The translations under genes and the position numbers were made by a program. A stretch of 64,000 nucleotides of DNA from Pseudovirgaria hyperparasitica. Taxonomy: Eukaryota. The first letter of the stretch is position 1, and every line of letters starts with the position of its first letter. The stretch lies in the NCBI GenBank assembly GCA_010093815.1, contig ML996565.1; one strand, given 5' to 3'. The notes under the pieces are model-generated. The model ran no database searches, was not told where the DNA came from, and saw nothing but the letters and a program-made list of their open reading frames with translations. Positions 6,684 to 53,589 of the stretch are shown here, in pieces.

Positions 6684-8599
6684 AATTATCCCTTCCCTCT
6701 AGGAAGCTACCCTTAGCGACCTAGATTATTATCTATTTCTATATCCCTATTCTAAGTCTCGTAAGACCTTAGTCACTCTCTACGCTTCGTCTTAGATACT
6801 TACTAATATTTACCGATCTAAGATTTATATAAGCATTTTTCTAATAAACTAGATTTTATCTATCTTAACTTCTTATATAGGTAAGATTACCTAATTAGGC
6901 CTAGCGTATCACGTAATATGATTAGATAAGCCCGGGTACTACCTATATTAAAATCTTTTCTTAGAAATATTCCTTTCTTTAAAAAACTTCTTAACTCTTT
7001 ATAGAGTTTTTTAGATTATTAGGTATATCACCCGATCCTTATAGATATAGATTTATATAGATTTACTATAATTTAGTGCGATTTACGTAATTTACTAATT
7101 TTCGTGCCGTCCTTAGCTAGTAATAATATAATTCGTAATAATCTATATAAATTAATAATAATCGTAATATAGTTTCCCGAAATCTCGACGCTCTAAAGTA
7201 ATCGGCGCGGAAATAGACGCCTTTAAATAATCCCTATCTTATATACGTTACCGACATGTCGAAAGCTATTAATCTACCCCGACCTAGGCCGGGCTCTAAT
7301 AATCTAGCTATATATTATTATGGTTATTACTTTCTATTATATATTACTTATAGCGGTACTAAATCTATAATATACGGTACTTATATAACTAAGAAGTATT
7401 ATTACTTATAGGTATTTAAGTAAGTTCGAAGAACTTTACGTAGATTTACTTATATTAGTATAGATTACTACTAGGTCTCTAGTAACCCCTACTAATAAGA
7501 AGCGTAGTACTACCGATTATAACGCCTTAGAGAAGGCTTTCTACGAGCTATATATCTAAGATAAGGGTTACGCCTAGAAGTATAATTCTAATAAGATCTA
7601 TAAGGATTTATCAGAATCTACTATAGCTATTATTACCGCGATTACTAGGTAATATCGTTTTTCTTAAATCGTTATAGATTCTTACTAATATATATTAATC
7701 TCTATAATAGTACTAAAATCTCTACTACTTCGGACTTCTTTCTANNNNNNNNNNNNNNNNNNNNNNNNNNNNNNNNNNNNNNNNNNNNNNNNNNNNNNNN
7801 NNNNNNNNNNNNNNNNNNNNNNNNNNNNNNNNNNNNNNNNNNNNNNNNNNNNNNNNNNNNNNNNNNNNNNNNNNNNNNNNNNNNNNNNNNNNNNNNNNNN
7901 NNNNNNNNNNNNNNNNNNNNNNNNNNNNNNNNNNNNNNNNNNNNNNNNNNNNNNNNNNNNNNNNNNNNNNNNNNNNNNNNNNNNNNNNNNNNNNNNNNNN
8001 NNNNNNNNNNNNNNNNNNNNNNNNNNNNNNNNNNNNNNNNNNNNNNNNNNNNNNNNNNNNNNNNNNNNNNNNNNNNNNNNNNNNNNNNNNNNNNNNNNNN
8101 NNNNNNNNNNNNNNNNNNNNNNNNNNNNNNNNNNNNNNNNNNNNNNNNNNNNNNNNNNNNNNNNNNNNNNNNNNNNNNNNNNNNNNNNNNNNNNNNNNNN
8201 NNNNNNNNNNNNNNNNNNNNNNNNNNNNNNNNNNNNNNNNNNNNNNNNNNNNNNNNNNNNNNNNNNNNNNNNNNNNNNNNNNNNNNNNNNNNNNNNNNNN
8301 NNNNNNNNNNNNNNNNNNNNNNNNNNNNNNNNNNNNNNNNNNNNNNNNNNNNNNNCTACTCTATCTACTCTATATACTCTATCTATTTTAATAGAAGTCT
8401 CTTTTCTAAAGTAATATCTTTATCTAAAGTATCTCTATAACTCTATATATCTTATTATTCTAAATTATATCTTTAGTATATTTAATTATAGTCTTTAAAT
8501 TTAATACTAGAAAGATAGTATATAATAGAGAGTAGAGGTTAAAAATTAATTAGACTAGGAACTTAAATGAAATAGTACTATTCTAAGCTCTCTCCAACT

Positions 8600-10790
8600 A
8601 TATAGCTACAATGAAATATAGTAGACCTTCCTTTCTTCTACCTTTAGGCGGTGTCCTTTATCTATTAAAAGGTGTCCTTATCTAGAACTACCTTTAATAA
8701 CCTTTTCTCCCACTAGACACTTCCCTCTATATTTCTAGTTACTATTTTTATTCTCTCTTATATTATCTATTCGGCCTCGTGGTAGTCTATATAGTTCCCT
8801 AGCTATATACTAATATCCGACTTCTCTTAAAAGTGTATACTCTTTATATATAGGTTAAAGACCCGACTTGAACGTCCGCCACCATCTAACTTTATTTTAA
8901 TTTAAGTATTAGTCGGGGTAGATAGACTACTAGTTAAGGTAGCTATAACTAGGGATAATAAGTTAGTAATAGACTTATTCATACTACACGTATATATACT
9001 ATTATTTACCGTTCCCGCGGTTACTTAGAGCGGGTCTATACTTAATACCTAAGATGGTATAATCTTATCCGTAGCTACTACTAGTAGTATAGAACTCTTA
9101 CCCATATCTAATGGCGCATGAGATAATTTAAGGCACTTATCTAACTAGTTTAGAGTATCCGACTCATCCTTTTCGTAGTAGTTAGTATCTATATAGCCTC
9201 TATAACTTTAGTATATACTTATATTACCCGATAGCTTAGACTCCTCGCTCTTATCTAAGTTATCCATATCTACTTTAGAGAAGTTATCTAGGTTATCTTT
9301 ATATAGGTTCATATATATAGTATCTAGGTCGATTAGTGTTAGTGCTATAAATACTAATACTATTAGCGATTTTTAAATATAGTTAATGCGGTAGGGCGCC
9401 TAGTTCGACTATGTTAGGCTTAGCGCTCGCTATTCCTCTATATAATTTAGCACGCGATTAGATAAAGGTATATATATATACCTAGTATTAGTAGAGAGCG
9501 TGCGAATCTATAGCGACCGAAGGACGAGTTCGGCGCCCGCCCGCTACTATATTCGTTAAGGGTATATCTTATTATAATATATATAATGGTAATCGTAGAT
9601 GGTGGGATCGGTCGGAATATACTACTATAGTGCTCCTTTAATCTAAGGAATCTTAGAGACTATAGTAGAACTAACTTTAGAGCCTTAATTACTACTAGCC
9701 CTACGAACATTTTCTAAGTTACGCTAGTATTATACTAATAATTAGTAACACGTCTAACACGACGTAAGTAATATACCTTTACTCCTATATACGCGTTATT
9801 ACGTATTAGGTTACTTATACTAGCTTTTCTCTTCTTAGCTATCTCCTAGTCCTAGTATTCGGATACTATCTATCTAACTCTAGAGAGGAGTTAGTAACGG
9901 AAGTCTATTATATCTTCCTTTACTAGCGTAATAACATGGGTAGGAGGTATGTTTTATAAATTATAATTAAGGTAGTAGCTACTAAGATTAATATCTCCGG
10001 CGGCTATCTAGGCCGATTATACTAGTATCCTAAAACTATCTAGGCTACTATCTAGCCATATATTAAGGCGATCGAATACCGGTAGTAACCGGTCTAAAAA
10101 CGTTATGGTAATCGAAATCTCTATTATCGCGAGGTACCGGTCTCGTTCGTAAGGCTAGAGACTATCTCTATAGGACCGCCTCTTTTCATAGATAGTTAGT
10201 TCCCTCTCTACTACTATTTCTCTACCTTCTTCTATCGAGCTAGATAGCTAATACGGTAGAGAAGAGGACGTAAGGCCGTTATATCCCTAGTTACTATTAC
10301 GGTAGGATATTACCGTGACGTCTAAGCTATATAGGGCGTTACTACTATATTCGCTGCCGGTATACCTAGACTACTAGGTTGTTAGTAGATAAACGAACGC
10401 GTCGAGATAAGCTAGGTGTATATATATACGTTTTTTATATTAATAGCTATCGTGTAAGTCCCTATTATTAATGCTAATACGTGTCTACGTTATATCGTAT
10501 CTTCGTTTACCTATCCCGTTTAGTTTACTATAGTTACTAGATTATCTTCTATTAGTATTACCGCTACGGTAGCTAGATAGTCCCTTAACTATCTTCTATA
10601 TTAGAGGTTCTATAGAGAAGATATATAAGAGATTAGTAGATATTTTCATTAGTAATAGGTCGGTAACCTACTAGGCGATAATATTAGATAGCGGGATAAT
10701 AACTAGCTAGTAGACACGATAAAGGTTTAGGCGTAGACTAATATAGTGTTTTTATAGACGCGTGATGCTTACGCGTTATTATTAATAATT
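8600..10790 (-). pseudogene. RIP-degraded, probably multi-intron gene of unknown function in element D
   Basis: Minus-strand coding-like stretches (MNLYKDNLDNFSKVDMDNLDKSEES...) are separated by CTAAC...AG intron-like signals. Boundaries are approximate. Confidence 0.35.
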
Positions 10791-10999
10791 TTAAGCGAGC
10801 GTATATAGGAATTAAGGGGCTAAGAGCTAGGTAGAAGTCAGGGGTTAGTAGGTATATATTGGGCTTTCGACGGGCTTACACCTAACTTCTTCTAGTATAC
10901 GCCTAGAATATCCGCCGTATGCCGTATTATTACCATCCACTAATAATTATACTATAGTATTTTTCCTTTATAGTAACTACACCTCGAGATACCACGGGC

Positions 11000-13900
11000 C
11001 GTAGTCTCCTACTAATACTATAGTAGAAAGATTAGTAGTATACACTATATAATCCGTAGGCACTATAACTCGGAACCGTATAGACGAGCACGGCTTACCA
11101 TATTACTATTATTATTATAACCATTAGGCCCGTAGCTACTACCATCGACTAGGTCACGGCGTAGCTTTAGTACTCGTAGTTATATTAGTCGATAGAACTC
11201 TTTGGTTCGCTCTATTGGTGTTTAGCCGTCGAGCGTTAATTAGAAGTCCGAGTCTATAGAATTAGGTACTTCTACTACTAATATTACCCTATATAAAGAT
11301 ACTACTATTTTCTCTAATTCTATTTCGGACCTAGAATCTATAGATAGCGTTACTAGTAGCTATAGTACCGATTTAGTATATTAGTCTAATATATATAGTA
11401 GAAATACTATGTCCATAGTAACGAGGGCGTCTAGTACTATATATTTAACGAAAACGTTCGAAGAGGAGAGCGGTATATATATTATAGTAGACTAGAGTAG
11501 ACGTGATAATCCGTCTAACGTAAGTATATATAGTCTAGGTTTATAGTAGTAACTAATTTAGTAGGCCCGATTTAGTTAATTCGATAGTAAGTTTATAGAG
11601 CGCCTTATAATATAGATGAATCGGTTCGGTATTTCGAATATAGTATACGATAAATTAACTACTATCCTTAAATAGACTTCCGCTATACCCCCTGACCTTT
11701 TTATACTAAAATCTAATATCATGTATAAGTAGTTATTATACTACCCTAAAGGGATACCGTATGAAAGTTGGTAGCGTAGCTACGACATATTCGGCACTAC
11801 TATAGTTGAATACTAGCATAGGGATCCGCTTACGTTAGTAGAATTCCTTCTTAGATACCGACCGTTCGCTAGTAAGCTCGTGTTTAAGCTAGTACGATAA
11901 TTTACTAGTTTAGGCGACCGGGTATATAGTAAAGCCTATATAGTAGATAGTTAGTAGAATATATACGCTACTATTCCGGATAGTACCGTTATTATCCCTA
12001 TTATTTTATCTTCGGATAAGATAAACCTTACTAACTATAGTAGTAATAGAGTAGCATGGCTAGTCTACCTATCTATTTATAATCTACCACTAAACGTCCG
12101 CTTATCTAGGAGTCTACTATTATTTCTACTACTTACTCTATTACTAGTAGTTAAGCTAGAAACGGTAGCGAATCGCTTTATGTTCCATTAGGTTATAAGT
12201 AAAGTTCTAGCCCGTATATCCGCCCATGATAGAGTCGTTAACTATACTAATTATTATATAGCGTTATAGACTATATAGAGTACTAGAGTATTAGTATTAT
12301 ATGCCGATGGCGGCTTGCGTAAGTACTATCCGCGTTTAGCTTTATATATTATAGATTTTCCGGAGTAGGTGCTTATCACGGGTATATCCCATTAGTATAC
12401 ATGTCTAATATATATAGTCCCTAGTAACAGACGATAGTATCTACGAGAAGCTATTACTAGTATATAGGAGTTCTATATATACTTATCGTTATAGGAATAG
12501 ATTTACCGTATACGTCGTAAGTTAATAACTAATAGCTACGGTAGCGAGTATACTAGTAGTAAGATAGATAATAGGACGAGTGTACCCGGTATCTTATTAT
12601 TTTCGTCGACGTCTTTCGCGCTAGTAGTATAGAGCTATTATATTCGCCAATCGGTTAAGAGTCGGTATTCTAGTAGGTGGATAGAGCCATTAGATAATTT
12701 CGCCTAGTTACTTACTAGAGTCAATATACACCGCGCGGTCGCTCCGGACATTCTATATTAACTATATAAGGGTATATTAGAATATACGTTTAATTGGATA
12801 GTCTTATATATTATTAATTAAGAGCGTACGGGACATAAGTTAAAGGGTGTATTTACCGGTATACCCCCTATAGAACGAGTAAAGAAGGCGATCGATAAGT
12901 AATTTACGTCTATTAGGGTATTCGGTCGTTATAACCTACTCACGTGTATAACTTTAGTAATATAATAGACGGGGGCAATGTTTAAGCGTATACTAGTAGT
13001 GTTCATAGTCGCGTTTAAACCGCTCCTATGTTATAATCGACACTTCCTAAGCGTAGTACGGGCGGTTATTAATATATGCATGTTAGCGGCGTACTATACG
13101 CATGATATATAGATACTAGCATACTTAGAAGAGGCTATATTACGCTTAGACGACCTGAAATACTAGTTTATACTATATCGTGGAGATAAATCGGAGGATA
13201 ATCATTTTAACTTTCCGAAGTTCCATGCATTATCGCACCTAGTTGATGCCATTAAACACTATAGTTCGTTATATCTAATATCGGTAGAGCTACTAGAGCG
13301 ATCTTATATCGTAGTAAAGGAATTATATTAAGGTTTAAATAAGAGGGAGACGTTTCTATAGTAGATGCTAGTAGTAGATACACGCACGACGAATACTAAA
13401 ATCTCTAGTAGTATAGAGGTGGCGGCTAGTACTAGTATATTAGTGGCCCCTGGCCTAGAGTAGCTTAATAATATACGTAAGCTAGTCGGCTAGCGGCGTA
13501 TTCTAAAGGAGCTACGCCGGAGTAAATATACACTCTACGTCTTATAGAGCCATGGACTATCTACGTCCTACTAGACTACCGTTAGCGACCTCTATAACGT
13601 GTATAGTAGTAGTTTTATATTACTTGATGCGGTTACACCCTTTATATATAACTATTATAATCGGCTTATTAGGGATAATATATTAAAAGGTACGAATATC
13701 GAATATATTAAAAAGGATCCTTCGTAGGCACGGGTCCTTTCTATCTATATATACGAGACTATATACGTGCCGATACGACTAGATAGAGACATATCTATAG
13801 AGGCCTTCGACCTAATTTAGATAAGGTATACCCGTAACTAGTAAAAGAGTGGTAAGGCTAGGGAGAATTATATAATAGTATAGGAGTTTAACGAGGGTAG

Positions 13901-14315
13901 TAACTACCTTAACGGGAAGCGGGTTAGTAAAGTCCGTATATTTCTAGAGGTATACGATACGGAGAGTATCGATATAACTAGTAGTATAGCGGCGCGATTC
14001 CTAGGTGCGTTAGTTAAACTACTTAATAACTTAGGTAGAGGTAATATCGATACCATTAGTAGCCTTATACCATTACGTATAGTGGGTTAAAGGTCTAGTA
14101 ATAAGACTTATACGATGGATAGGTTCCGTGTCTATAAGCTAGAGCATGTTCTACGCCCTATATAGATTATATCACGTCGGTTAGTTATAGATAGTTTATT
14201 CTAGTTAAATACGTATAGTAATTAGGGGATCTATAACGAGGTATATAACCTAGACTTCTAGGCTATGAATAGACGAAACGTGACCGTAGCGTTAAAACAC
14301 GGGCGCGTGTCGTAA
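11000..14315 (+). pseudogene. Plavaka-family (CACTA/En-Spm-like) transposase, RIP-inactivated
   Basis: HRDPLTLVEFLL (about 11817); IIPIILSSDKINLTNYSSNRVAWLVYLSIYNLP (about 11990-12090, family motif SDKTxL...AWPVYLSIGNLP); YIIDFPE*VLITG; APDILY*LYKG (PDxLHQLxKG); NFPKFHALSH. The start is approximate. Confidence 0.88.
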
Positions 14316-17300
14316 GTCTATCGCTATCTACCGCCATCTACCGTAGTATACCGGCATATGCCGGTATATAGCGGAAGTTATAGTTTATACATAGTAGCAC
14401 TCGATAGTCATATCCTATACTAGGATATCTCTAAGGAATAATCGTGGTTTATTACGATCGGTTCTATAAAAGGCTTATATTTAATAACTATCTATAATTT
14501 CAGCTAAGAAGCATCTAGGGATGCACCTCCTTATTATCTAATAATTACTAGCTAGTATAAAAACTCCACGCCTCTAAAAGGGGCATATAGAACTTAAAGG
14601 ATCCTTATTTATAGGTAGAACTAGACGCGGATAGTATTAACCTAATATAGATAGATTATATATATTAATACCCTAAAATCCGAACTATATCTCTAGGCCC
14701 ACTAGATCTAGCTCGTACCCGATTCTAATGTTTTCGTTATTCGCGTTTATACCTTATTAGATGCCGGGCATATAATAAGTCTATGGTTAAGTAAGTATTA
14801 GATACGTAACGAGTCTATTAATGAATAAGTACCGGGTATATAACGAGTCTATATAAATAAGTATAAATAAGTATATACCGGGTATATAACGCTCTTACTA
14901 GGGAAACGTCTTCCTTAAGTATCTCCCCCTTCTAATGTTTCTCCTCCTCTTTCTTTATTCTTTCTCTAGCCTTATAAGTGTAGTTAGACTTATATCGCTG
15001 TATTATCGATATATACGTTCTTATATAGACCGTTAGAAACTACGGTAACTAGATGTACGTTCTTATAATAGATAAATATACTATACTAATACGTTACATT
15101 GTTCGTGTTTAATATAAGGGTTCGCTACTATAATTATTCGTTATTACGCTCGTCTATCTCTTCTTAATAATAGTACTAATCGATAACGACCTATTATAGA
15201 GATGATAGTTAGTATTACGTACTTCTCTTAAATATTCGTATATTAATGTTATATGAGTACATGCTTCGCGGAGGTTCTCTATCCTTCCCTTAAGCTACCT
15301 AGACCATCCCCTAATTGCTAAAAACTCTTATATCTAACTATTTCTACTATTTATTCCTTAGTTCTACTCGTTAGGCTTCGAACAATAGCGAACTACAATA
15401 GGTTAGCGGTTATCTATATTTCGCGTACGCTGAGTTAGTATACCTAAATATAATAGATAATAGTATATTTATAATAGTATATACTAGATCTTATAGTATT
15501 CCTCTTTAGCGGTAGATCCACGTGGTCGTAAAGACGGCCTACTATCCTATCGTGCCTATATACTACGCTACTCTTTTATCGTATATAGATAGTATTACTA
15601 GAGTAGGGCCATCGCCCGGTAAACTTAACATTATATATAGAGTATTATATATTTAACGTCGTTATTTCACGTGCCCTATATTAGTACGGGATCGGATGCC
15701 GGCCGTATGTTTCCCTACCTCCATTAAATTAACGAGTTATTACCAATAACTATACGGACTACTCGCGTTAATATAGCCGTAACGTACATGTTATACCTAC
15801 GCCTATTATATAGTATATATATCTTATCTCTCCATCACCCTAGTAATATATACTATTCCCTATTCCGTCTACCTATAGCTACGTCCGGCTAGCCGCGAAT
15901 AAATAGCCGAGTAGAAGCGAGTCTCGACCTACTTTATATATTTAGAGCGTCCGATAGGTAGAAACTTCGGGTACACATAGAAGAGTTAATTTAGAAGGAA
16001 TTTACTAGCCTATTACTAAACCTACGTAGTAAGGAAGTAAAGGACTACCATATAAAACGAGAGCGTTACCTATAGACGGTCGCGGATAAATATATATTCA
16101 TTAATAGTAGTTATACTATTTCACGGGTAGATGCTATATATTAACTTAATACTATATTCTTAGTATTTACGCGTAACTAGCGGCGGTTAGCTAAATACTA
16201 TTATATACGTTAAAACGATGCCCCGGGCTAGACGAGCTATTATAATGTTATATATACCCCACGAACCCGCCTAATATATCTAGCTAACCTAGTTATTCGA
16301 CCGACGGACTACTAGTATCTATATCTTCTAAGGTAGCCGTGCCGCCGTGTTATATACGTATATCTATAGTCCTTATCCGCGATCGTACTTGGGTCACCCT
16401 AGTACTAATAACGGCTATATAGAATGGCACAACGCCGTTAAATGTTAAGGGTGTAAAAATACACGATATAGTAGGTCTTAGTATAAATAAACTATTAGAA
16501 TTTATTAGCTTATCTATAGATATACTAGGGGACGTAGGCGGTTATAGGTATGGTCGCGTCTATCTAGAGTACCCGATTCTACTAAGCGAGTCGAGTAATA
16601 TAATCCTTTGTAAGGATAGTTTAGACTAGGTATTATAGTAGGCTATTAAATAGTATAGAAGGCCGCTCCTACAGCCCTATATGTATGTGTCCCTAGCTCG
16701 ATTACATGGCTTCATTATATATTTAAGGAGGGCGTTTTCCTTGGTCATTCTACTCAGCGCGCTTCCCCCATCACTAATATTCGACTATTCGACCTTTCCT
16801 TACGTTCATAGGCCTCTATAGGTATTAATTATTAGGCTTAGCTATTAAAGAATTAATTAAGAGTATTATATAGACCCGTCCTATTATAAAAGAGAACTAA
16901 TAAGAAGTCGTGCGTTCAAAGAGAACTTATAATACCTAGGAGAGATACTTATGAGTTCGTCGCGACTACTATACTAGGAATATAGCTATTTATAAAAGGG
17001 ATACACGTAGCGATAGCTTACTATAATTTTAGAGGTCGTACCCGGACTATAAACTTATAGGGGGAGATTAGAACTCCGAAACTAGCTTAGGGGAAGTATA
17101 TAACGTGCCTAATAAGGTAGTCTAGACTTACTAGATTAAAGCTATAAGTCTAGAAAATAGGGAGTCCGGAGTCGCTAGAGGCTAGCCTCTTAAAAGTAGC
17201 TATAAAAAGTATATATATACTAACACGGGTAATAGCGCGACTCGAAAATATCTTAGGGGAATAGAATATAAAATAGAGCTAGATGAAGTAGCAAAGAAGA

Positions 17301-17399
17301 GTTCAAAAACGACAAATATAACCTATTTAGTACTACTATAGCTGTTATTTATAAACACGGCTACACGAGTATACTACTTTAGGAACGCCTTACACGAAG

Positions 17400-20300
17400 A
17401 TAATAATATAAGTAGAATACCGTGAACCTTATATCGATAAAGACGATAGTAATAGTTTATCTTATAAAGGGATTAGTTAATATAGAGAAGGGATAATAGG
17501 TGTTATAGGTAGACGCATTAGGCCAACCTTTAGTTAAGGTAATCCCTTAACTAATAACCTTACCCCTAGCGTCTCTACTAGCACATCTACTACTAGTAAT
17601 AGTATAATAGAAGCTTAAAATAACGACCTAGTAACTCGTAGAGAGATGCTTAACTTCTTCGTAGCATTTACGCGATAAGAAAGGATGGTACCTCTATCTA
17701 CCCTAGCCCCTAAGCGCTTTAAAGGAATAAATATTACGGCCTTCCTTCGGAAGTACGAGGACATATATATAAACTATAAAGTTCCGCCTAATAAGAAGAT
17801 AACCTCCCTACCGTTATACTACGAGGACTATCTCCGTCCTACTATTAAAGGAATAAGTAGGTTTTAGAAATAGTAGTAGGCCACGCTACATAAAGAATTA
17901 TTAAAGGAATTCTCTCTATTTAACTCTACCCTCAAGGAAGGTACTATCCACTTTATCCGAAAATACGTGGAAATAGTTAAAGTAGACCCATTCTACTCTC
18001 TCCCTATATACTACTCCTAGTATTATATTATCATAGAGAAACTTATAGCTAAAGGAAGCCTAAGCTCGTATTCGCGAATAGAGCTCTTCCTAGAAGGGCT
18101 GCCTAATAGTCTTAAGGCTCGGGCTATAGAGAAATGTTAACTCACGATAGAAGCACATAGTTATAACTAGGTAATTATCTATGGCTTTATATTATAAAAG
18201 GCTAGAGTACTTAAGGAACTAGCTTATATTAATAAGCACTTAGCCGTATAAGAGCTAGCCATAGCTATATACTATAAATTAAAGATAGAGAGTAAGAAGA
18301 CCGGCTTAGAAGAGTAGTTACATGAAGAAAGAAGAACTAATAAATTTAACCACCCCTCTCTAGTCGTAGTACACGTCGCGCTAGAATCGGATAAGTTTAA
18401 TGAGATAGTAGAGAGATTTAGTAAACTAGACCTTACGTTAATTAAGATGAAGTCCTACTTTATCTCTAATCCCTTATTTCTATCCCTTAAGAAGTATAAA
18501 CCTAAGCTACTTTCGGCTATTATTAACTAGTAGGCGCGAAGGCTAAATCTTTTAGTATATCTCTAAGTACGAGGCATACCTATAGAACTAACGTAAGTTT
18601 ATCCATAGAATTATATATAGAATAGAGAATACGTCTCTACCCGAGACTCCTAAGAAGGCGTTATAGCCTAGAATAGGCCTCGAAGACCGATTATATATAT
18701 CACGTATAGAGAAGATCACCTAATATATAGATATCCGGAGATAGTAGAATATATTAGAGACGGATTACTAAATATTAACGGGGTATAAGTATTCTAAGGG
18801 CGTTTCGGGGCGAACGGAGAAGAAATCCTATTACTACCCTCCTCGGTAGGGCTATAAGCTACTCTATAAGCTATCTAGAACTATATAGTAATAGTTTAAA
18901 ACGGTCTAAGCTAGTACGGAGGAGGAGTAAAGGTTTCTATATCTATAGTAAATATTAATACTTTATAGGGAGTGCCGGTATATAGTATTAGTATAAAACC
19001 TACGAAGGGTCCCTACTAGGTCTTAGTAGATAGTAATTTAGAAGAAGAAGTTATATTATCCGAGAGTAAGAAAGATAGATATATAGAATTCTACGAACGC
19101 TTCGACGTAGCTAGTAATAGATATATCTATAAGGAGATAGCCCTAGAAGAGCCTACTATACTTATAATATCTAGAAGGGGGATTACGAAGAGTATACCTA
19201 ATCGTACTAAGGAAAGAAAGATCGTCCGTCTCCGCGGAATACGTAAAGGGTAGTATATAAGAATTATTAAGGAATAGAAGGATAGTAAGAAGAGTAGCGA
19301 CTAGAGAACGTCTAAATAAGAGCTAATAGCGCTAGAGGATAAGATAGATAAAGGGGATAGCCTAAATCCTAGTTAAAAGGTATATATCTAAGGTATTAAG
19401 CTTAATAACTATCTACGCGAAGGATAGCGGCTAAGTATAGAAGCTAGCGAAGTATAGCTAGTGCGCGTTCTAGGGATAACTATAAATATTACTATTAGTA
19501 AACTATTAAGCCTTAATAGTAACTTATATCGTACGGTATTCGAGAAGGGCGCCCCCGACTTTATAGCTAGAGAGGTCTATAAGACTTAAGAAGAGAGAGC
19601 TAAGAAGAAAGGAAGAAATAACTATACTATGGCTCCCGAGATAAATAAACTTAATATATTAGCACCCCTCTATACTATAGGGACGGCTATCACGTAATAA
19701 GATATTAATTAGCTTAAGGAAGGGATAGTAAGGCTAGTAGCCGAGTATCTAAGGTACCCTATAGAAGTTAGTTCTAAAAGGGCGACTAGTATAGTACTAT
19801 TTAATAGTAGCGCATAGGTAAATAGTATTTAACTAGATACTACGAGGCGTCTCGGGCTAGCGATATCTTCGCTTCTACTATATATAAAGAACTCGAGTTT
19901 AGTTAGCGCTACTTAGTATAGCACTCTATTCGTAGGAATAGTATAGTAATACTCTATCCGTATAGGTCGGATCGTTATAGCTACTTCGATATTTATATAT
20001 AGTAAACTTAATTATAACCTTATCCTAGGGGAGCCATATACTAGATAGACCTTACTTACGGTATAGAGGTTAGCCTCCGGGTAAGTACTCTTAATAGTCT
20101 ACTCCGTATATAGATAAGAATATATAACCTTTAAAACTAGTCCGGATAAGTATATTCTAGTCTTAGAGAAGGAGGGTAACTCCGTGGCTAGAGACTAACT
20201 ATATAGCGGAGTATATCGCCGGAAGCCGGAGTTAAGCCGGATTATTAGTTAAGGGCTACCCTTAACTAATAATCTATACTAAATAGAGTCTAGTAAACCT

Positions 20301-36889: not shown

Positions 36890-37568
36890 TATTATTATCG
36901 GTTCTATCGGCGAGTTACGTTCTAAGGAGAGGTAGTTAAGCGAGGCGGAAGTAGAGAAGAAGGTTTTATTAATTAAGGAGGTATAGAGAGGTATAAGAGG
37001 GAAGAGTTATATACTATCTTAAGTTCTCTTTTTATGCCTCCTCGAATGCCGGGTATATAGTAATTTTTATAAATGATTCTTACTAACGGCCGTAGGCCCG
37101 TATACGTGTCGAATCTATGAATAAATATATACTAGGTATATAGGAAATCTATAAATAAATATGTCTACCGGGTATATAGCGGAATCTATAAATAAATAGA
37201 TACCGGGTATATTCTTATCCTTATAAGACTTCCTATAAGTATCTTTTTCTTCTATATCTTCTTCTTCTTTTCTTCCTTATTAGTTTCTAACGGGGCCCGT
37301 TCTATAGTAACGAAATAGGCCTTCGATAGGTAGGCTTCGATTACACGACCGGTTTTAATATATAGTAGGTGGAATTCGTATAAACGCTATTATATCTTCT
37401 TTCGAGCATTACTTACTTTCATAATAAGTTTTATTATTTTATAGTAATAATAGGGTTTATCATCCTCTTTCGATAATAGAGTTTATCGTCCTTTTTTAAT
37501 AATAGAGTTTATCGTTATAAGGCTGCTTTTATAAGTATCCCTTCCCTCCTTAAAAAAACTTCTATCCC

Positions 37569-40500: not shown

Positions 40501-43500
40501 AGGGCTCTAGGAATATTAAAGTTCTTCGCCTACTATACCTTATGTTCTACTGTTCGGATCTCCTACGGAGGTACCACCTCTTCGTTAAATTTACTAAGGT
40601 ATAAGAATTCCTATACTAGTGCTTCCTCGCGATATAATAAGATTATATATAGTAACTTAAGTTCCGCGGGACATAGCTCTATTCTAATCTTTAGCTAACT
40701 TATATATAGAGGCGTTAGACGTGTTCCTAGCGGGATAGTTACCCTTTAAGGCTCTATTAGCCTATTAAACGCGTTAAGGCCTAGGTAGATAGCTAGAAGA
40801 AGTACCTACTATGCGATTACTCGTTCACGCTAGTCTAGATACCCTAATAGATTTCTAGGAACCTTTCGGTGGGCTTCGGAGTCATCTACGGGGTATACTT
40901 TAACTCCCTTTCTTTTATATATAGTGGCTATACTAAATCCCTTTAATACCCTAGATGAATACCGTCTTTAGAGGCTGGTAGAGCCTACTATAAGCCATTC
41001 TATTATCGTGCCTTATTTATATATAAAGGTAGTATACCTTACCGCCGTAACTAGGGCGGCTAAGTTATCTTTTCTTAATAACTAAGTAATATTTTTAGGC
41101 CGGATTTTCTCGGAAAGTAACTCTATATAACTTATTTCTATATCCGTATAAAAATATAGTCTATCCCCTTTATTAGTAGGTTTACCGGACTCTATTTAGT
41201 ACGGATTATTAGTTAAGGGTAGCCCTTAACTAATAATCCGGCTTAACTCCGGCTTCCGGCAATATACTCTACTATATAGTTAGTCTCTAGCTACGGAGTT
41301 ACCCTCCTTCTCTAAGACTAGAATATACTTATCTAGACTAGTTTCGAAGGTTATATATTCTTATCTATATACGGAGTAGACTATTAAGAGTACTTATCTA
41401 GAGGCTAACCTCTATACTATAAGTAAGGCCTATCTAGTATATAGCTCCCCTAGGATAAGGTTATAATTAAGTTTACTATACATGAATATTAAAGTAGCTA
41501 TAATAATCCGACCTATGCGGATAGGGTATTACTATACTATTCCTATAAATGGAGTACTATACTAAGTAGCGCTAACTAAACTTAAGTTCTTTATATATAG
41601 TAGAAGCGAAGATATCGCTAGCCTAAGACGCCTCGTAGTATCTAGTCGAATACCATTTACCTATACGCTACTATTAAATAGTACTATACTAGTCGCCCTT
41701 TTAGAACTAACTTCTATAGAGTACCTTAGATACTCGGCCACTAGCCTTACTATCCCTTCCTTAAGCTAATTAATATCTTATTACGTAATAGCCGTCCCTA
41801 TAGTATAGAGGGGTGCTAATATATTAAGTTTATTTATCTCGGGAGCCATAGTATAGTCATTTCTTCCTTTCTTCTCGGCTCTCTCTTCTCGAGCCTTATA
41901 GACCTCTCTAGCTATAAAGTCGGGGGCGCCCTTCTTAAATACCGCACGACGTAAGTCGCTATTAAGGCTTAATAGTTCGCTAATAGTAATGTTTATAGTT
42001 ATCCCTAGAACGCGTACCAGCCATGCTTCGCTAGCTTCTATGCTTAGCCGCTATCCTTCGCGTAGATAGTTATTAAGCTTAACGCCTTAGATACGTGCCT
42101 TTTAACTAGGATTTAGACTATCCCCTTTATCTATCTTATCCTCCGGCGCCGTTAGCTCTTATTTAGACATTCCCTAGTTACTACTCTTCTCGCCGTCCTT
42201 CTATTCCTTAATAATCCTTATATACTACCCTTCATGTATTCCGCGGAGATAGGCGATCTTTCTTTCCTTAGTATAATTAGATATACTCTTCGTAATCCCC
42301 CTTCTAGATATTACGAGTATAGCGGGCTCTTCTAGGGCTATCTCCTTATAGATATATCTATTACTAGCCACGTCGAAGCGTTCGTAGAATTCTATATATC
42401 TATCTTTCTTACTCTCGGGCGACGTGACTTCTTCTTCCGAATTACTATCCGCTAAGGTCTAGTAGGGACCCTTCGTAGGTTTTATACTAATACTATATAC
42501 TAGCACTCCCTATAAAGCGTTAATGTTTACTATAGACGTGGAAACCTTTACTCCTCCTCCGTACTAGCTTAGACCGTTTTAAACTATTACTATATAGTTC
42601 TAGATAGCTTATAGAGTAGCTTATAGCCCTACCGAGGAGGGTAGTAATAGGATTTCTTCTCCGTTCGCCCCGAAACGCCCTTAGAATACTTATACCCCGT
42701 TAATATTTAGTAATCCGTCTCTAATATATTCTACTATCTCCGGATATCTATATATTAGGTAATCTTCTCCGTACGTGATATATATAATTAGTCTTTAAGG
42801 TCTATTCTAGGCTATAACGCCTTCTTAGGAGTCTCGGGTAGAGACGTATTCTCTATTCTATATATAATTCTATAGATAAACTTACGTTAGTTCTATGGGC
42901 ATGCCTCGTACTTAGGGATGTGCTAAAAGATTTAGCCCTCGCGTCTACTAGTTAATAATGGCCGAAAGTAGCTTAGGTTTATACTTCTTAAGGGATAGAA
43001 ATAAGGGATTAGAGGTAAAGTAGGACTTTATCTTAATTAACGTGAGGTCTAGTTTACTAAATCTCTCTACTATCTTATTAAACTTATCCGATTCTAGTGT
43101 GACGTGTACTACGACTAGAGAGAGGTAGTTAAATTTATTAGTTCTTCTTTCTTTATATAACTACTCTTCTAAGCCGGTCTTCTTACTCCCTATCTTTAAT
43201 TTATGGTATATGGCTATGGCAAGCTCTTATGCGGCTAAGTACTTATTAATACGAGCTAGTTCCTTAAGTACTCTAGCCTTTCGTAATACGAAGCTATAGA
43301 TAATTATCTAGTCGTAACTATATACTTCTATCGTGAGTTAACATTTCTCTATAGCCCGAGCCTTAAGACTATTAGGTAGCCCTTCTAGGAAGAGCTCTAT
43401 TCGCGAATATAAGCTTAGGCTTCCTTTAGCCATAAGTTTCTCCGTAATAATACGATACCGGGAGTAGTATATAGGGAGAGAGTAGGATGGGTCTACTTTA

Positions 43501-44080
43501 ACTATTTCCATGTATTTTTAGATAAAGTGGATGGTGCCTTCCTCGAGGGTAGAGTTAAATAGAGAGAATTCCTTTAATAATTCTTCACGTAGCGTGGCCT
43601 ACTACTATTTCTAAAACCTACTTATTCCTTTAATAGTAGGACGGAGATAGTCCTTATAGTATAATAGTAGGGAGGTTATCTTCTTATTAGGCGGAACTTT
43701 ATAGTTTATATATATATTCTCGTACTTCCGAAGGAAGGCCGTAATGTTTATTCCTTTAAAGCGCTCGGGGGCTAGAGTAGATAGAGATACTATCCTTCCT
43801 TATCGCGTAAATGCTACGAAGAAGTTAAGTATCTCTCTACGAGTTACTAGGTCGTTGTTTTAAGCTTCTATCGCACTATTACTAGTAGTAGGTGTGCTAG
43901 TGGAGACGCTAGGGGTAAGGTTATTAGTTAAGGGATTACCTTAACTAAAGGTTAGCCTAATGCGTCTACCTATAACACCTATTATCCCTTCTCCATGTTA
44001 ACTAATCCCTTTATAAGGTGAACTATTACTATCGTCTTTATCGATATAAGGTTCACGGTATCCTACTTATATTATTATCT
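37569..44080 (-). pseudogene. A2 gag-pol
   Basis: Reverse complement of the A1 gag-pol. ORF-track 37686..37880 matches 23598..23792. Confidence 0.92.
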
Positions 44081-45834
44081 TTATATAAGGCGTTCCTAAA
44101 GTAGTATACTCGTATAGCCGTGTTTATAAATAATAGCTATGGTAGTACTAAATAGGTTATATTTATCGTTTTTGAACTCTTCTTTACTACTTTATCTAGC
44201 CCTATTTTATATTCTATTCCCCTAAGACATTTTCGAGTCGCGCTATTACCCGTGTTAGTATACGTATGCTTTTTACGGCTACTTCTAAGAGGCTAGCCCC
44301 TAGCGACTTCGGACTCCCTGTTTTCTAGACTCGTAGCTTCGATCTAGTAAGTCTAGACTACCTTATTAGGCACGCTATATACTTCCTCTAAGCTAGTTTC
44401 GGAGTCCTAATCTCCCCCTATAAGTTTGTAGTCCGGGTACGACCTCTAAAATTATGGTAAGCTATCGCCACGTATATCCCTTTTATAAATGGCTATGTTT
44501 CTAGTATAGTAGTCGCGACGAACTCACAAGTATCTCTCCTAGGTATTATAAGTTCTCTTTAAACGCACGACTTCTTATTAGTTCTCTTTTACGATAGGAC
44601 GGGTCTATATAATACTCTTAATTAATTCTTTAATAGCTAAGCCTAATAATTAATACCTATAGAGGCCTATGAACGTAAGGAAAGGTCGAATAGTCGAATA
44701 TTAGTAATGGGGAAAGCGCGCCGAGTAGAATGACCAAGGAAAACGCCCTCCTTAAATATACAATGAAGCTATGTAATCGAGCCAGGGACACATACATGTG
44801 GGGCTGTAGGAGCGGCCTTCCATACTAGAATAATAAACGTTATATCGCTAATTACTTACTCGGGTAAGCTAACGACCTCGCCCTACATAACGAATAATAT
44901 CGATATACTACTTATAGAGACCGTTCGACAAATATTTAGAATCTACGGCTATTAATATATTATATATACTAACATTAATAGGGATTACACGCACACGGTA
45001 AATAACTTAATATATAACATGGACTTATTACGTTTCACTTAGTAGATTATTACCGAGCTCTTCCGTTATAGCGTCATACTTAATCGCGTACTCTATATTT
45101 CTATATACGCCGCCTAACGTAATCTATTTAAAGGGATAGTTAGGAACTCGCTTCTAACTACACTTACCGCAGCGGATAAAGCTCGATTTAATACCCTACC
45201 TAAGCCGGTATAGAAGCTTGTCCAATGGCGTTCATAGGACGGTTCTTAGGGTTATAATAACGATATAGTCCTTATTAACCCGGTCTAAACTAATCGCTTC
45301 GGCTTCCTCTCGGAAGTAAACCGTAACGTCGTTACTATCACGCGCGCTAAATAGATAATAGTTATTATTACTAACTTCGTATCTCTTAAGAGGTAGAAAG
45401 TCCTAGACGGCGTACTTAGCGAGATATAGAATAAGTACTCTAAGATTTATACGATATACACGTGCACGACCCCCGACCTAGATGGCCTCCCTCCACTCTC
45501 TAATATACCTAATCCCTAATATAGTTACTCTATACTTAGTATTAGAGAGAGGGGAGAACGAAGCGATTAATAAACTACCGATAGTGCTAAGCCCCGTAAG
45601 CCGCTAGTCTACCGTAAATATAACGTCGAAGAATATAAGTCTATTAAGTATCTAAGAGGGTCGACGCTTACATGTAATAACTATTAGGACATTAGCTATA
45701 AAGCTAATGTTTACCCTAAACCCAAGACGCTTACGGGTACGTTTTACTATAATTATAGAACTACCGGTTATACTTGGCGTTATTGTCCTAGCCGCACTAA
45801 ATTACTAGCACGTATAAATGGTAATAATCTAGTT

Positions 45835-48579: not shown

Positions 48580-51500
48580 AGTTATATATAGGAATAGATA
48601 GGCATAATAAGAGTCACGACTATCCTAGTTTAACTACTAGCTATAGAATGGCTAACCGTAACACGTATATACGACGTGCGGAGGCCTTAAGCGTTAGCGC
48701 CCTTCTACCTTACATCTAGTACCTCTAAGGCCTATATCTAATACCCGAAATAAGTCATGATATATATAGGGCTACTATTATTAAGATAGTAAGTAAAGAA
48801 GTAGTAATAGAGCTTGAAACTAGTAGTATAGACACTACTATACTCTATAGAATAGTTAAGGAAACCGTTACTAGAGAATTTAATTAGTATATCGCGGCTA
48901 TAAATGGTAAGTTAGTACCGACGGTTACGACTATAGATATAATAGAGGCTAAACTAGACATAGATACTATAGGTATAGGTACGTAGATATAGTTACCGCT
49001 AGAATATAAGGAGAAAGATAATATAGAAGATACTAAAATGGAAGACGACGTAGCTAGTATACTTAGACATATATATATACACACGGTCCTAGATACTAAC
49101 ATCAGAGTAGTATCGAAGATAGGTGCGGCTATAACCACCGACATAGATAATCCATCTATAAATATCGTCGTGTCTAGCGAAGCTTATCCACGCGTAAANN
49201 NNNNNNNNAGTAGTATCGAAGATAGGTGCGGCTATAACCACCGACATAGATAATCCATCTATAAATATCGTCGTGTCTAGCGAAGCTTATCCACGCGTAA
49301 ATATACTAGCTATAGAGATATAGTTATAGTTACCGTTAGAACATACGGAGAAAGAGAATGTGGAAGATACTAAAATGGAAGACGACGTAGCTAGTATACT
49401 TAGATACATATATATATACATGGTCCTAGATACTAACATTAGAGTAGTATCGAAGATAGGTGCGCCTATAATTACCGATATAGATAATTCCCCTACGAAT
49501 ACCGTCGTGCCTCTAGATACCAGCGAGACTTATCTATAGCTACTAGAAATAAAGAGGATACTCTCGGATAATATAGTAAACCTAGTCGATTCTCCGAAAC
49601 GCCTAAAACTAGAATATATTATACTACTAGATATCGACCGGTAGACATGTAAAAACCAGGAACTATTTAGGTTAGTAGATAATTTATATAGTAGATATAT
49701 ATCGGATAGTGTATTAGCGAACGGCCTTGACTTTAAAATCCTTTCTATAGATAACGACTCTAACGGAGACGAAGTAAAGCTAGATATAGAGAACTTAATT
49801 CCGGTAGATAACAATGTTAGTACGAAACTATAGGAAGCGTAAGTTATACTAAGAAGTAAGTAGGAATATATACTACTATACTAATATACCTATAGAATAT
49901 TCGCCGTTAATAACTCCGATAAAGTAGTCTAAGCTATCTCTTATTATACGGAAGAGATACGGTTACTTACTATAAGTATGTTTAGGCTTACGCTAGACGA
50001 TCTAATAAAGAAGTTCGGCCATATACCCACTCTATATCTAGCCTTTAGTATAAGTAGGTTATATAGGCCATAGGCCGGCTAGTTACTCGCGGTAGTTACT
50101 ATATTTAAGTAGCGGGCGGGTCCGTGGAAGTGCTAGATCTTAGTAGATGGCCTAGGGCTAGGGAAGATAATCGTGCTTATAACGTTTATCCGCCTCGCGT
50201 TTTATTAGGACTTTCTACGCGATAATATAGAACTTAATCTAGGAAATTACCTATAACCGACTTAAGACTCGGGCATGGATAGGAAGTGCCCGATATAATC
50301 TCTATATCTAATTAAATGTCCGTGTAGCTAGACCGATGATTTCGTCTATATACCCCGCCTTCGAGGACCATTTATACTATACTATCTAAGGTCCCTTCTA
50401 ATAGTGTATTGGCCGTAGCGCTTTAAACAGATATATAATAATACGGATAGCATGTTCACCGATTAAATCGATAAACGGAACCCGATAAAGATAATAGTGT
50501 GGCTGGTATACTCGAAAACCCTTACCGACGCCCCTAGTATCCGATAATTCTCGTATATAGACCGATAATACTTAGCTAAGAGATGCCTACACCCCGAATA
50601 GGAACATAGCGTCGATATTAGTAATACTACTAAATTCGAGACCAACGAGGAGTATATCGTTAGGGTATGGTCGATTCTAGTTAATAGGACCGCTACTACT
50701 AAATTTCCGTCGCGATACGCGAAGAACCATATAATCTATAGTACCGTCTAGAGTATAGAACCCTAATATCTTAAATCTTTTAAGGGACGCGTAGTTATAA
50801 GAGTAAAGAGGGCGAAATAATTCGGTACTAAAAACACTTAAACTCGCGAAGTAGTATTCCTTAGTATATTAATAGTAGACGAGTTCTATTCCGTAAAGAA
50901 CCCCGATATAAAATAGTATAAATATACGATATATAATACCCTTATATTTAGTATATAGGTTAGTGCAACGCCCCTCTCGAATAGTCTAGTAGATATTCTA
51001 GCGGCTATTAAGGTAGGTGCTCTAGATAAGTTACCTAACTATATCGACGATAATACTACTAAAAGAGTATTCGAGAGCCTATAGAATAAAACTATAAGGA
51101 AGATTATTATAACGTGGTTAAATAAACTCCTTAGTTTAATAAAAGGTAAGCTAGCGGACACGATGGCCGCGATAGTCCGTAGAGCATTAGAAACCATAGA
51201 AGGTAAGCGCACACTATGTATAGTAGCCGATTAGTATTTACTATTTATCCTATAACGGGGACTACTAACTAAATAGTTTAACGGAGAGGCATGTCTATCT
51301 ACGACATTAAAGCTAGTAGTAGAGTTTATATCTATCCCGGCTATAGAACTAGAGAAGATAATCGTACGGTTATACGAGAATAGAGGTAGATAGTTTAATA
51401 ATCTATAGTCTAACGGAACGCCGCGGGACTTATAGGTATAATCTACCGCCTAGAGTAAATCGAAAGGGGGTACCGGGTCCGGGCTTAACGCATACTACCA

Positions 51501-52390
51501 TTAGGCTAGGCTAGCTACTACGTATACACTACTTATATACCTTACTAATAAAAAGATAGAAGATAAGTAAATTAATATTACGCTTACGCGTCGGAGGGAT
51601 AGTAATAATAGTATACTAAGTAAGATAATCGCTAATCCCGTACGCAAAGCACTTCTATAGCTAGATAAGGCCATGCGAAAGGAGATGGTATCGCTAGCTA
51701 ATAAACACGCTTCGAAGGTAAACTAGATCTATAACTTTATTAATAATAACGTTTATAATAAAAGTACTAGACACGCGCGATAAACATCCGTCGACCGCCT
51801 AGAGAAAATCGTACTCGTATATGCCGTACCGGTAAGCTTAATATTCCTATACTTAGTAAGTATTTACACTGCCTACTAGTAACGTAATTCACTAATATAT
51901 ATAGGTACTACGTCCATATGCATAAGCGAAAATATTAGTATATTTACTAGCCGGCCTAAGTACGTCCGAATTAAATAAGGTATATAGATTATTTAGGTCG
52001 ACTAAGTCGGATTCTCCGTGTATTCTACTAGTATTAGCTTCGTAGGTCTACGAAGGATAAGACCTAATAGTCGCCGGTTTTATAGTATTAGTAGACTAAT
52101 ACTTATATAAGGAGACGTGGCCGTAGATAAGCATAAGATATTATCGCCATGGATAACATCGGCCTATAGTATATACGTATGCTTTGATTTTAGACTATTT
52201 AGAGGTTAAGGCTAGACTCGCCGCGTTAGGTAAGGCAATTAAAAGCATAAGAATATAAGCCTTGGACCTAGGAAAAGGAGATGCAGCTATGGTAGAGATA
52301 GCTATACCTAATATACTAGTAATAGGCGTACGCTTTAATTCCATAGAGATATAGTAGTATAGAAGTAAGTAAGGTAGTTAGTTAATTAGC
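48580..52390 (+). pseudogene. SNF2-family (SF2) ATPase, RIP-inactivated
   Basis: Motif I ILVDGLGLGKI (about 50137-50170; ADxxGLGKT); motif II IVDEFYSVKN (about 50872; DExH); motif III SATPLSN (about 50962); motif VI *G*TRRVR* (about 52208). The start is approximate. Confidence 0.85.
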
Positions 52391-52507
52391 TTCTAAGAGA
52401 CTAGATAGCATGGTAGTATAAATACGAACTACTATTTACTCGTGATTACATATCTATATATATCTATACGTAAAGAGAAATAAGATATTTATTCTATACC
52501 TTTATAT

Positions 52508-52818
52508 AGTAGGACGTTACTATATATGCCGGTATATAACGGAATATTCCGACATGCGCCGGTATATTATAGAATATTCCTAGATACTCGAAGTATAGTC
52601 GTAGTAAAAAGTAGCATTACTATTATATGCCGGCATATGGTAGAACGTTACTATATATACCGGTATATAACGGGATCATGTTCCGACATACTATACGCCG
52701 CTAGTATATTATAGAATATTCCTAGATACTTGAAGTATAGTCGTAATATAAAGTAGTATCGCTATACTATGCCGGCATTTAGTAGGACGTTACTATATAT
52801 ACCGGTATATAACGGGAT
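52508..52818. repeat. Subterminal repeat of about 135 bp x2.3, rich in ATGCCGG(C/T)AT
   Basis: agtaggacgttactatatatgccggtatataacgg recurs at 52508, about 52639 and about 52781. Confidence 0.85.
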
Positions 52819-52858
52819 TAAACGTTTTCTTAACATTCGATAGAACGATTCTAAAAGA

Positions 52859-53035
52859 ACTAGGACGGCTCTAGGAGAACTAGGACGACTCCGGGAGGAC
52901 TAGGACGACTCTAGAAGGATTAGGATAACTCTAGAAGTACCGGGACGACTCTAGGAGGATTAGGACAACTCTAGAAGTACCGGGACCCATTTAGGATAAC
53001 TTTAGAAGTATCGGGAGACCTAGAAGCATTGGGAG
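52859..53035. repeat. 20-bp subterminal tandem array of element D
   Basis: (C)TAGGACGACTCTAGGAGGA units x6-7 immediately before the terminus. Confidence 0.88.
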
Positions 53036-53589
53036 CGCCGTATCTTTCCTAATGTATAGGTTTCTATAGAGGAGTTTATAGCTATAAGGCGCGCTATATA
53101 GAATTTATAGCGTCGGAACGAAAGGCTAGAGACTTATATTATAAAGCTCTATACTATACTAAATAAGAACTAGCGGAAGAAATTAGATGTAACCATCGCG
53201 GTAATTAGTACTTCTACTCCTACTCCGACTTAATCGGTTTAGATCTATACTAATTAGTACTAATATATCTCTTTTATCTAGCGTTTTTAGTTTTTCGGTT
53301 TTAATTTTAAAGCGATCTTACTTCTTCTAGATAGATTAGTGCGAGTTTATATAGATCTATATAGATCTTTATATTTTCTTTTAGCTTTCTTAATTTTATC
53401 TTTCTTTAATAATAACTTTTTTAATCTCTTTAGTAATCTATACCAATCTATACTAATTGGCACTAATTTTTAATGTCCATTTCTCTTAGTAAATCATTTT
53501 TCTAAGTCTCTTTTTTAGTTAAATTTTTTAAAGTTCTAAGTTCGAACTTTCTAAGGAAGTTCCTTAATTCCTTAGAATATTTTAAAGAT

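Follow-up and report, generated by a model that had tools for sequence, protein, structure and literature searches.

Can a cut-and-paste DNA transposon, a type of element that usually holds one or two genes, carry helicase-type motor enzymes alongside its transposase? The question is raised by a 64,000-nt stretch of Pseudovirgaria hyperparasitica (GenBank assembly GCA_010093815.1, contig ML996565.1), the whole of which is called the window here. Between about 2 kb and 60 kb this window is rich in AT; it is broken by four runs of N (5332-5341, 7745-8355, 49199-49208 and 56956-57310), and contains a 44.7-kb insert between the two halves of a host repeat copy, B2. With a probability of about 0.68, we read the insert as the dead remains of a large Plavaka-lineage DNA transposon (about 22 kb) with DUF6532, superfamily 1 (SF1) helicase and SNF2 genes, which was moved by cut-and-paste, later hit by long terminal repeat (LTR) retroelements and killed by repeat-induced point mutation (RIP). 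The structure first noticed here is confirmed. Its interpretation is partly supported: largely so at the level of the family, and unproven for the left end and the unity of this particular copy.

The insertion site can be defined by comparison with a neighboring copy of the host repeat, B1. In self-BLASTN, B1 4088-5331 matched 6457-7699 (90.1%) and B1 5659-6456 matched 53055-53825 (89.9%), and local alignment placed the end of the left half, 7744, at B1 5431. The portion of B absent from B2 is therefore B1 5432-5658, 227 bp. The parts of the interrupted site are as follows.

6457-7744, plus strand: left part of host repeat B2, the insertion target, aligning to B1 4088-5431.
7745-8355, no strand: scaffold gap of 611 N, expected to contain the missing 227 bp of B together with some 384 bp from the element's left end.
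53055-53825, plus strand: right part of host repeat B2, by homology to B1.

A first-pass annotation of this DNA had described B2 as broken at 7744/53055, with 227 bp of missing B sequence that would fit into the gap; the break was recovered by both alignment methods, and the missing length was reproduced exactly. At the empty site in B1 (between 5658 and 5659), ...CCGCTC is followed directly by TATAGGTTTC, and in B2 the element end ...CCTAATG is followed by the same TATAGGTTTC, with B1 homology restarting at 53055. This right junction (53054/53055) lies within one contig. The empty site predicts a target site duplication (TSD) of TA or TAT, and the left junction falls inside 7745-8355.

Nested in the insert are two LTR elements of 11.45 kb, oppositely oriented, 93.4% alike over 11,455 nt and each with direct terminal repeats of about 374 bp (self-BLASTN). 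They differ at 752 positions, 732 of them transitions. The plus strand of copy 1 matches RT_RNaseH (44.8 bits) and RT_RNaseH_2 (42.3 bits), indicating the Gypsy type; the nested elements thus combine direct LTRs with a Gypsy-type reverse transcriptase (RT)-RNase H, as Ty3/Gypsy elements do. Once both copies are subtracted, a net element of 21,797 bp is left, including about 103 bp of assembly duplication; the earlier estimate was about 21.6 kb. No inverted-repeat pair marking a further nested DNA element was detected inside the net element. The sequences concerned are these.

16651-28097, plus strand: nested Ty3/Gypsy-type LTR retroelement, copy 1, with LTRs at about 16654-17027 and 27713-28086 and RT_RNaseH at about 21813-22194.
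33373-44827, minus strand: nested Ty3/Gypsy-type LTR retroelement, copy 2, inverted, splitting the SF1 gene.
49199-49301, no strand: assembly artefact in the element, a 10-N gap plus a 93-nt exact repeat (49209-49301) of 49106-49198, which is an unmerged contig overlap.

Genes were searched with Pfam in six frames of the three arms of the net element (21.8 kb), reading through stop codons as X, and motifs were sought by eye. The following remnants were located.

9519-9944, minus strand: DUF6532 gene remnant (PF20149, 27.1 bits against a cut-off of 24, E 4.5e-6).
11805-14282, plus strand: Plavaka DDE transposase (PF18759, 100.1 bits against a cut-off of 26.3, E 1.8e-28).
30930-33372, plus strand: N-terminal part of an SF1 helicase gene, with a Walker A-like GYRGARKSH and VIIEGATY as motifs by eye, cut by LTR copy 2.
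44830-45375, plus strand: C-terminal SF1 helicase domain, AAA_12 (PF13087, 41.5 bits, profile positions 30-193 of 195).
50125-51036, plus strand: SNF2-like ATPase N-lobe remnant (PF00176, 21 bits against a cut-off of 24.9, E 2e-4, scanned piece 50050-51399).
51929-52330, plus strand: possible SNF2 C-lobe (helicase C-like), by eye only, with the frame shifted +1.

The transposase is colinear in a single frame and riddled with RIP-type stop codons. Against a profile built from the ten nearest relatives (alignment A1), all of which carry PF18759, it scores 357 bits and covers profile positions 45-822 of 842. Judged by this alignment, the gene reads as essentially full length and as a genuine Plavaka transposase, as the first-pass annotation had proposed. 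Its segments SSDK, IIDFPE*, DILY*LYKG and HFNFPKFHALSH, with an E downstream, align to conserved columns of the profile and can be regarded as containing the putative catalytic residues; several of the aligned motif residues are changed in RIP fashion (H>Y, Q>stop). It is important to consider that a word-indexed protein search is nearly blind to RIP-damaged queries, giving 2 matches for the transposase and 0 for the N-terminal half of the SF1 gene, and that a full HMMER search with read-through gave 927 transposase relatives at E<=1e-3. Among the roughly four ORFs of unknown function reported earlier, one can now be named as the DUF6532 gene, and the rest are uncountable in DNA this degraded. 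Stop-codon density was rejected as an ORF counter, as coding and noncoding frames are too poorly separated by it.

The helicase-type remnants were identified with less uniform evidence. The AAA_12 match begins at the first residue after LTR copy 2 and helicase motifs stand immediately before that copy, which places copy 2 inside a single SF1 gene. In PDB, the AAA_12 piece matches Sen1 best, although weakly (E 0.031). As regards an Upf1/Sen1-like assignment, AAA_12 is above threshold and the AAA_11 half is visible as by-eye motifs only: the N-terminal half had no match in Pfam, PDB or protein databases, AAA_11 being undetected. In the SNF2-like remnant, motifs I, II and III were recognized by eye as ILVDGLGLGK, ILIVDEFYSVKNP and SATPLSNSLVDIL, and the possible C-lobe had no Pfam or PDB match. 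PDB sequence searches with the helicase pieces gave nothing significant. Of the two helicases announced in the first-pass annotation, the SF1 gene has a Pfam match above threshold in its AAA_12 half, and the SNF2 score is below the cut-off. With these qualifications, the element would have held an Upf1/Sen1-like SF1 gene and a SNF2-type ATPase gene beside the DDE transposase and the DUF6532 gene.

The right end of the insert has the organization of a transposon end, and a related end is found elsewhere in the window. The repeats and termini are listed below.

8356-8385, plus strand: 9-bp tandem array CTACTCTAT, 3.3 copies, the first visible bases of the element (array search).
29590-29788, plus strand: internal 18-bp tandem array, 11 copies (array search).
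52490-52986, plus strand: right subterminal repeats, comprising a repeat of about 142 bp in 1.8 copies (52562-52818) and a 20-bp array in 6.7 copies (52841-52974).
53032-53054, plus strand: right terminus GGAGCGCCGTATCTTTCCTAATG, with B1 homology resuming at 53055.
3253-3665, plus strand: isolated right-end fragment (413 bp) of a second Plavaka-type element, with 18/36-bp and 10-bp arrays followed by the terminus ...GGAGCGCTATATCTTCCCTAATG.

The subterminal arrays claimed earlier are thus present, at the right (142 bp and 20 bp) and at 8356 (9 bp). The terminus said to be shared with the fragment at 3665 is shared indeed: the final 23 nt there agree with 53032-53054 at 20 of 23 positions, and the 14-mer TATCTTYCCTAATG has exact copies in the window only at these two termini. 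Taken alone, this 23-nt agreement has modest statistical weight, with an E value of 0.098 from a small search. Read against the PlavakaB terminus TGATG, the right end ...CCTAATG agrees at 4 of 5 positions, the mismatch being TpG>TpA, and the corresponding left end lies inside the N gap. The reverse complement of the right end is CATTAGG, not the CACTA of strict En/Spm termini. The label of a CACTA-type element is a loose one: Plavaka belongs to the wider EnSpm/CACTA-related clade, but the ends would be CATTAGG...CCTAATG. The SNF2 remnant ends about 700 bp short of this Plavaka-like terminus. As a separate observation, the internal 18-bp array (29590-29788) is nearly stop-free in two frames (+1 and -1).

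For the left end, the inner edge of the fragment at 3665, consisting of (AGTAGATAG)3 at 3252-3280, matches 8359-8385 in reverse complement over 27 nt (3254-3280, 96%). This inverted match would set the left end about 385-413 nt into the gap, where 611 - 227 leaves 384; since its 9-mer is common, with 16 sites in the window, the match can serve as a hint only. A short-word BLAST of 8356-10400 against the right end, in search of a left terminal inverted repeat (TIR), returned noise only. A left TIR candidate at 2042-2055 was discarded as chance, with no extension of the match and with 4 matches at <=2 mismatches against 2.2 expected.

RIP was quantified with two indices, (CpA+TpG)/(ApC+GpT) and TpA/ApT. 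Values of 0.24-0.28 and 1.64-1.67, respectively, were obtained alike for the three arms, the transposase, the SF1 and SNF2 genes and the spacers, compared with 1.31 and 0.85 in the unaffected flank at 60001-64000. The first index is 0.07-0.13 in B1 and the left part of B2, and 0.19-0.22 in the LTR elements. The uniform RIP described in the first-pass annotation is therefore confirmed, with the same indices in all arms and genes. Separately, B is more heavily RIPed than the Plavaka arm and has a summed contig depth about 10-fold higher, being a far more abundant repeat.

To estimate copy number, contigs from two runs of a single sample, from which the assembly probably derives, were placed on region 7000-16650 at >=85% likeness. 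The two runs gave 9,025 and 3,845 contigs. In run X1, summed depth was even over 8356-16650, at about 13-27 thousand, and the single contigs listed mostly had a depth of about 250. Almost all differences between the placed contigs and the left arm are transitions. The 8.3-kb left arm is a high-copy, RIP-diverged family across its whole length.

Whether helicases accompany Plavaka transposases elsewhere was approached through metagenome contigs, which were scanned with alignment A1. The best 80 loci (numbered with the prefix L) were retained and clustered at 80% identity into 46 families, 29 of them with at least 3 kb of flank. Pfam was run on 82 of the 84 flanking open reading frames (ORFs) of at least 200 aa, the two left out being overlapping frames in L052, and on 35 of the 61 shorter ORFs of L005, L016 and L013, the other 26 overlapping transposase or SF1 genes. 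Of the 29 families with flank, 5 have an SF1 gene, an SNF2 gene or both next to the transposase, and DUF6532 occurs in 6 families. SF1 genes with both AAA_11 and AAA_12 adjoin the transposase in 3 families, as do SNF2 or Helicase_C genes in 3. In L005 and L013 the SF1 genes (1,311 and 1,297 aa) are downstream on the same strand and have CCHC knuckles, and in L007/L008 the SF1 gene (961 aa) is upstream of the transposase. SNF2 ORFs were found in L005, L058, L061, L068 and L075, a Helicase_C ORF in L016, and DUF6532 ORFs in L005, L029, L033, L043, L045 and L065/L067, upstream of the transposase on the opposite strand.

All four gene families stand together in one contig only, L005, in the order DUF6532 (minus), SNF2 (minus), transposase (plus) and SF1 (plus), followed by an array of about 1 kb in which an 8-mer (GCATTCTG repeats) occurs 26 times directly and 3 times inverted. 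L005 1-20205 is an apparently intact relative of more than 19 kb. Additionally, the family of L058, L061, L066, L068, L072 and L075 (about 90% identity, at least 6 metagenome contigs) contains a 10.6-kb block of SNF2 and transposase genes, common to L058 (1842-12337) and L075 (3493-14101) within unrelated flanks. In this unit, SNF2 is upstream of the transposase on the opposite strand, and TGTCAGAG-type repeat arrays lie inside. Its right boundary is the same in 4 copies with 4 different flanks, and its left boundary in 2. Since the block recurs with different flanks, SNF2 and the Plavaka transposase evidently travel together in this family. The first-pass annotation had named helicases never linked to the transposase elsewhere as a point that would tell against a single element; the repeated presence of SF1, SNF2 and DUF6532 genes beside relatives, and of all four in L005, favors the element instead.

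The linked helicases appear very divergent from one family to another. The SF1 proteins of L005 and L007 are 23% identical, the SNF2 protein of L005 had no BLASTP match to that of the 10.6-kb family, and the L005 helicase had only two relatives in a set of 5.8 billion proteins. This divergence is equally compatible with an ancient linkage and with repeated capture. The remnants in the window are not detectably related to any of these genes: profiles of the metagenome SF1 and SNF2 proteins with hhalign did not recognize them beyond motifs V-VI, and tblastn in both directions between the window and the metagenome loci matched the transposase only. The contrast is marked, with 357 bits from the transposase to its relatives and at best 16.7 bits for the helicase remnants.

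Several lines of evidence argue for one element. Besides the linkage seen in the metagenome relatives and the even, high depth of the left arm, there is a single interrupted B2 site, with exactly complementary halves and 227 bp missing; the sole transposase is Plavaka, in a single frame and near full length; and the RIP indices are alike in transposase, SF1, SNF2 and spacers, and unlike those of B and the LTR elements. Several points weigh against this reading. The left terminus and TSD are inside the 611-N gap, and a complete two-ended element was not seen. The copy-number data come from the left arm alone, and a second copy joining the transposase to the helicases was not seen in this genome. 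The SNF2 N-lobe score is under the Pfam threshold, and the SF1 N-terminal half and SNF2 C-lobe were identified by eye. Among the relatives, L005 differs from the window in gene order and was not seen at its left end, and in the 10.6-kb unit a search for TIRs and TSDs did not resolve the termini. The window remnants are without specific similarity to the transposase-linked metagenome helicases, the sole match being one of 16.7 bits in motifs V-VI. Furthermore, L001, whose transposase has 76% DNA identity to that of the SF1-linked L008, has 3.5 kb upstream without SF1, and helicase-domain fusions were found in none of 34 long transposase homologues (the longest or best matches). Thus, the earlier statement that the whole unit moved as one transposon stands as a linkage at the family level, but not as a demonstrated movement of this copy in one piece.

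An alternative reading is a mosaic, in which a normal-sized Plavaka element with DUF6532 and transposase lies beside unrelated repeats with SF1 and SNF2, either degraded mobile elements or captured host genes, so that the 22 kb were never one unit. Nested insertion is frequent here, as the two LTR elements in the region attest, several kilobases between the genes have no recognizable content, and the helicase remnants are not detectably related to those linked to other Plavaka transposases. Nor is linkage universal, as 24 of the 29 families with flank show no helicase and L001 is without SF1 upstream. Nevertheless, neither a second transposase, a Rep or recombinase gene, nor an internal inverted-repeat pair is visible; the SNF2 remnant abuts the Plavaka-type right end, the RIP indices are identical across segments, L005 unites the four gene families, and in another family SNF2 moves with the transposase. 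We consider such a mosaic unlikely.

An incorrect join across the 611-N gap, with the contigs ending at 7744 and starting at 8356 coming from different loci, is quite improbable. B is indeed a very high-copy repeat, with about 10 times the summed contig depth of the element, and no contig of the source sample spans gap 7745-8355, the gap bin being uncovered and no loose end being listed at 8356. Both 10-N gaps are unmerged overlaps, that at 5332-5341 because the sequence preceding 5332 recurs after 5341. Assembly problems in B are further suggested by B1 5348-5431, which matches 7661-7744 with 100% identity in a repeat whose copies otherwise agree at about 90%. However, a random join would rarely yield B2 halves that are exactly complementary, without overlap and with a missing 227 bp that fits the gap, and the right junction is within a contig. 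The gene content and right end would stand even with a misjoin. There is a very small chance that this is another class of giant element (Starship or Helitron-like) merely containing a Plavaka insertion, as its size, cargo-like genes and helicase gene might suggest, but the six-frame Pfam scan of the 21.8 kb (E<=0.01, with sensitivity lowered by degradation) gave no other transposase, no Rep/HUH and no tyrosine recombinase/DUF3435, in line with the first-pass remark that no Starship-type captain is visible, and the helicase is of the AAA_12 (Upf1/Sen1-like) rather than the Pif1-like kind, with a Plavaka-like right end.

Some features of the surrounding repeats can be added. LTR copy 1 is flanked by TTAAA and TTAGG, compatible as a TSD after G>A changes, and the flanks of copy 2 are ambiguous. 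Both copies have 11 nt in common (AGGMACTARGC; 28087-28097 and 33373-33383) past the 3' LTR end as set by the 5' LTR, which could be either a short 3' extension of the LTR element or a target preference. The 3' part of the LTR element (26084-27166 and 34304-35227) resembles an 800-aa ORF without Pfam family in metagenome locus L020 (3275-5674, minus strand), with 28-31% identity and E 2e-26 to 8e-34; such a protein may account for the unusual length of the element. Another repeat, A, has copies at 2605-3252 and 58785-59432 (648 bp, 86% alike), and its final 226 bp also open B1 (4090-4317) and B2 (6459-6684). The four copies of this A-type segment share one end point (...GCTAAGTTCTAAT) and are LTR- or terminal-segment-like. 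Beside the right part of B2, 54313-56400 (minus strand) is a further degraded Gypsy-type element, matched by the RT-RNase H and integrase ORFs of L075 (E 3e-22 to 5e-23), and B may be part of it.

Under the single-element reading, the transposon would have inserted by cut-and-paste into B2 at a TA-rich site, with a predicted left junction of ...CCGCTCTA(T) followed by CATTAGG... and a TSD of 2-3 bp. The family would have multiplied to many copies in this genome. Two Gypsy-type LTR insertions would have come next, one of them inside the SF1 gene, along with inactivation by RIP. The transposase would recognize the terminal and subterminal repeats, and the DUF6532 protein may represent a second, DNA-binding element protein, like TnpA of En/Spm. 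At donor and target sites, the helicase and the SNF2 ATPase might help the element to open or remodel DNA or chromatin; alternatively, they might aid in the evasion of silencing.

On a broader and more tentative level, for which we would give somewhat less than even odds, these elements may form an undescribed large-Plavaka lineage in fungi or other soil eukaryotes, defined by genes for DUF6532, SNF2, a DDE transposase and an SF1 helicase of the Upf1/Sen1-like kind, which has CCHC knuckles where relatives are intact, the window holding a RIP-killed member that once had dozens of copies. If this is true, the element itself provides the means of opening DNA and chromatin, for transposition or against silencing. 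The lineage would add motor enzymes to the DNA- and chromatin-modifying cargo known in Plavaka, which, in the parts of the literature consulted, so far comprises TET/JBP in mushrooms and a methylase, SET and a ParB-oxygenase in red algae. As a testable example, it would also represent a transposon that opens chromatin or resists silencing by its own means, and for such tests the intact metagenome relatives (L005, L013, L008 and the 10.6-kb SNF2 family) are better material than a dead copy. For annotation, helicase-like fragments in RIP-degraded regions can be transposon cargo and not decayed host genes.

Among known systems, the nearest fungal counterpart is PlavakaB of Agaricomycotina, with termini CATCA..TGATG and a TSD of 2-3 bp, in the EnSpm-related CMCT clade (Kojima 2025, PMC12730594). 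The Plavaka domain is common to both, the TSD of 2-3 bp fits the predicted TA or TAT, and a single TpG>TpA change would separate the terminus ...TAATG here from ...TGATG. In contrast, TET/JBP is the only accessory gene described for PlavakaB there, and helicase cargo is unmentioned in the text searched of that article; the element described here had no TET/JBP match, is of about 22 kb with SF1, SNF2 and DUF6532, and resides in a strongly RIPed genome. In the portion of the Bostrychia preprint that we consulted, TET/JBP is likewise given as the only accessory gene known in basidiomycete Plavaka, and giant Plavaka elements are described that measure 17-19 kb and bear three accessory genes acting on chromatin or DNA (10.1101/2025.02.11.637652). 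En/Spm elements of 16-20 kb are noted for Chondrus in a review (PMC6431247, consulted in part). From these two sources, the red algal giants resemble our element in transposase, size (17-20 kb), several accessory DNA or chromatin genes, arrays, and massive proliferation followed by decay. They differ in their accessory genes PAG1-3 (N6-adenine methylase plus SET, and a ParB-like domain plus 2-oxoglutarate oxygenase, with no helicases among those in the consulted portion of 10.1101/2025.02.11.637652) and in having algal, not fungal, hosts. "Helicase" appears among accessory domains for filtering DNA transposons, without Plavaka detail in the text seen (Muszewska et al. 2017, PMC5751038), and our search of literature on Plavaka, EnSpm and giant transposons, supplements excluded, found no description of SF1 or SNF2 cargo in Plavaka.

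Like ours, the classical En/Spm (CACTA) elements have subterminal arrays, a second protein encoded by the element and a DDE transposase from the same wider clade, but their termini are CACTA...TAGTG, with a 3-bp TSD, and they have no helicase genes. Starships of Pezizomycotina are likewise large, cargo-carrying and found in RIP-running fungi, and have a tyrosine-recombinase captain where a DDE transposase is present here. Finally, Helitrons are also eukaryotic DNA transposons that encode a helicase, although there it is Pif1-like and fused to Rep/HUH in elements without TIRs, whereas the helicase of the present element appears to be Upf1/Sen1-like (AAA_12) and encoded by a separate gene beside a DDE transposase.

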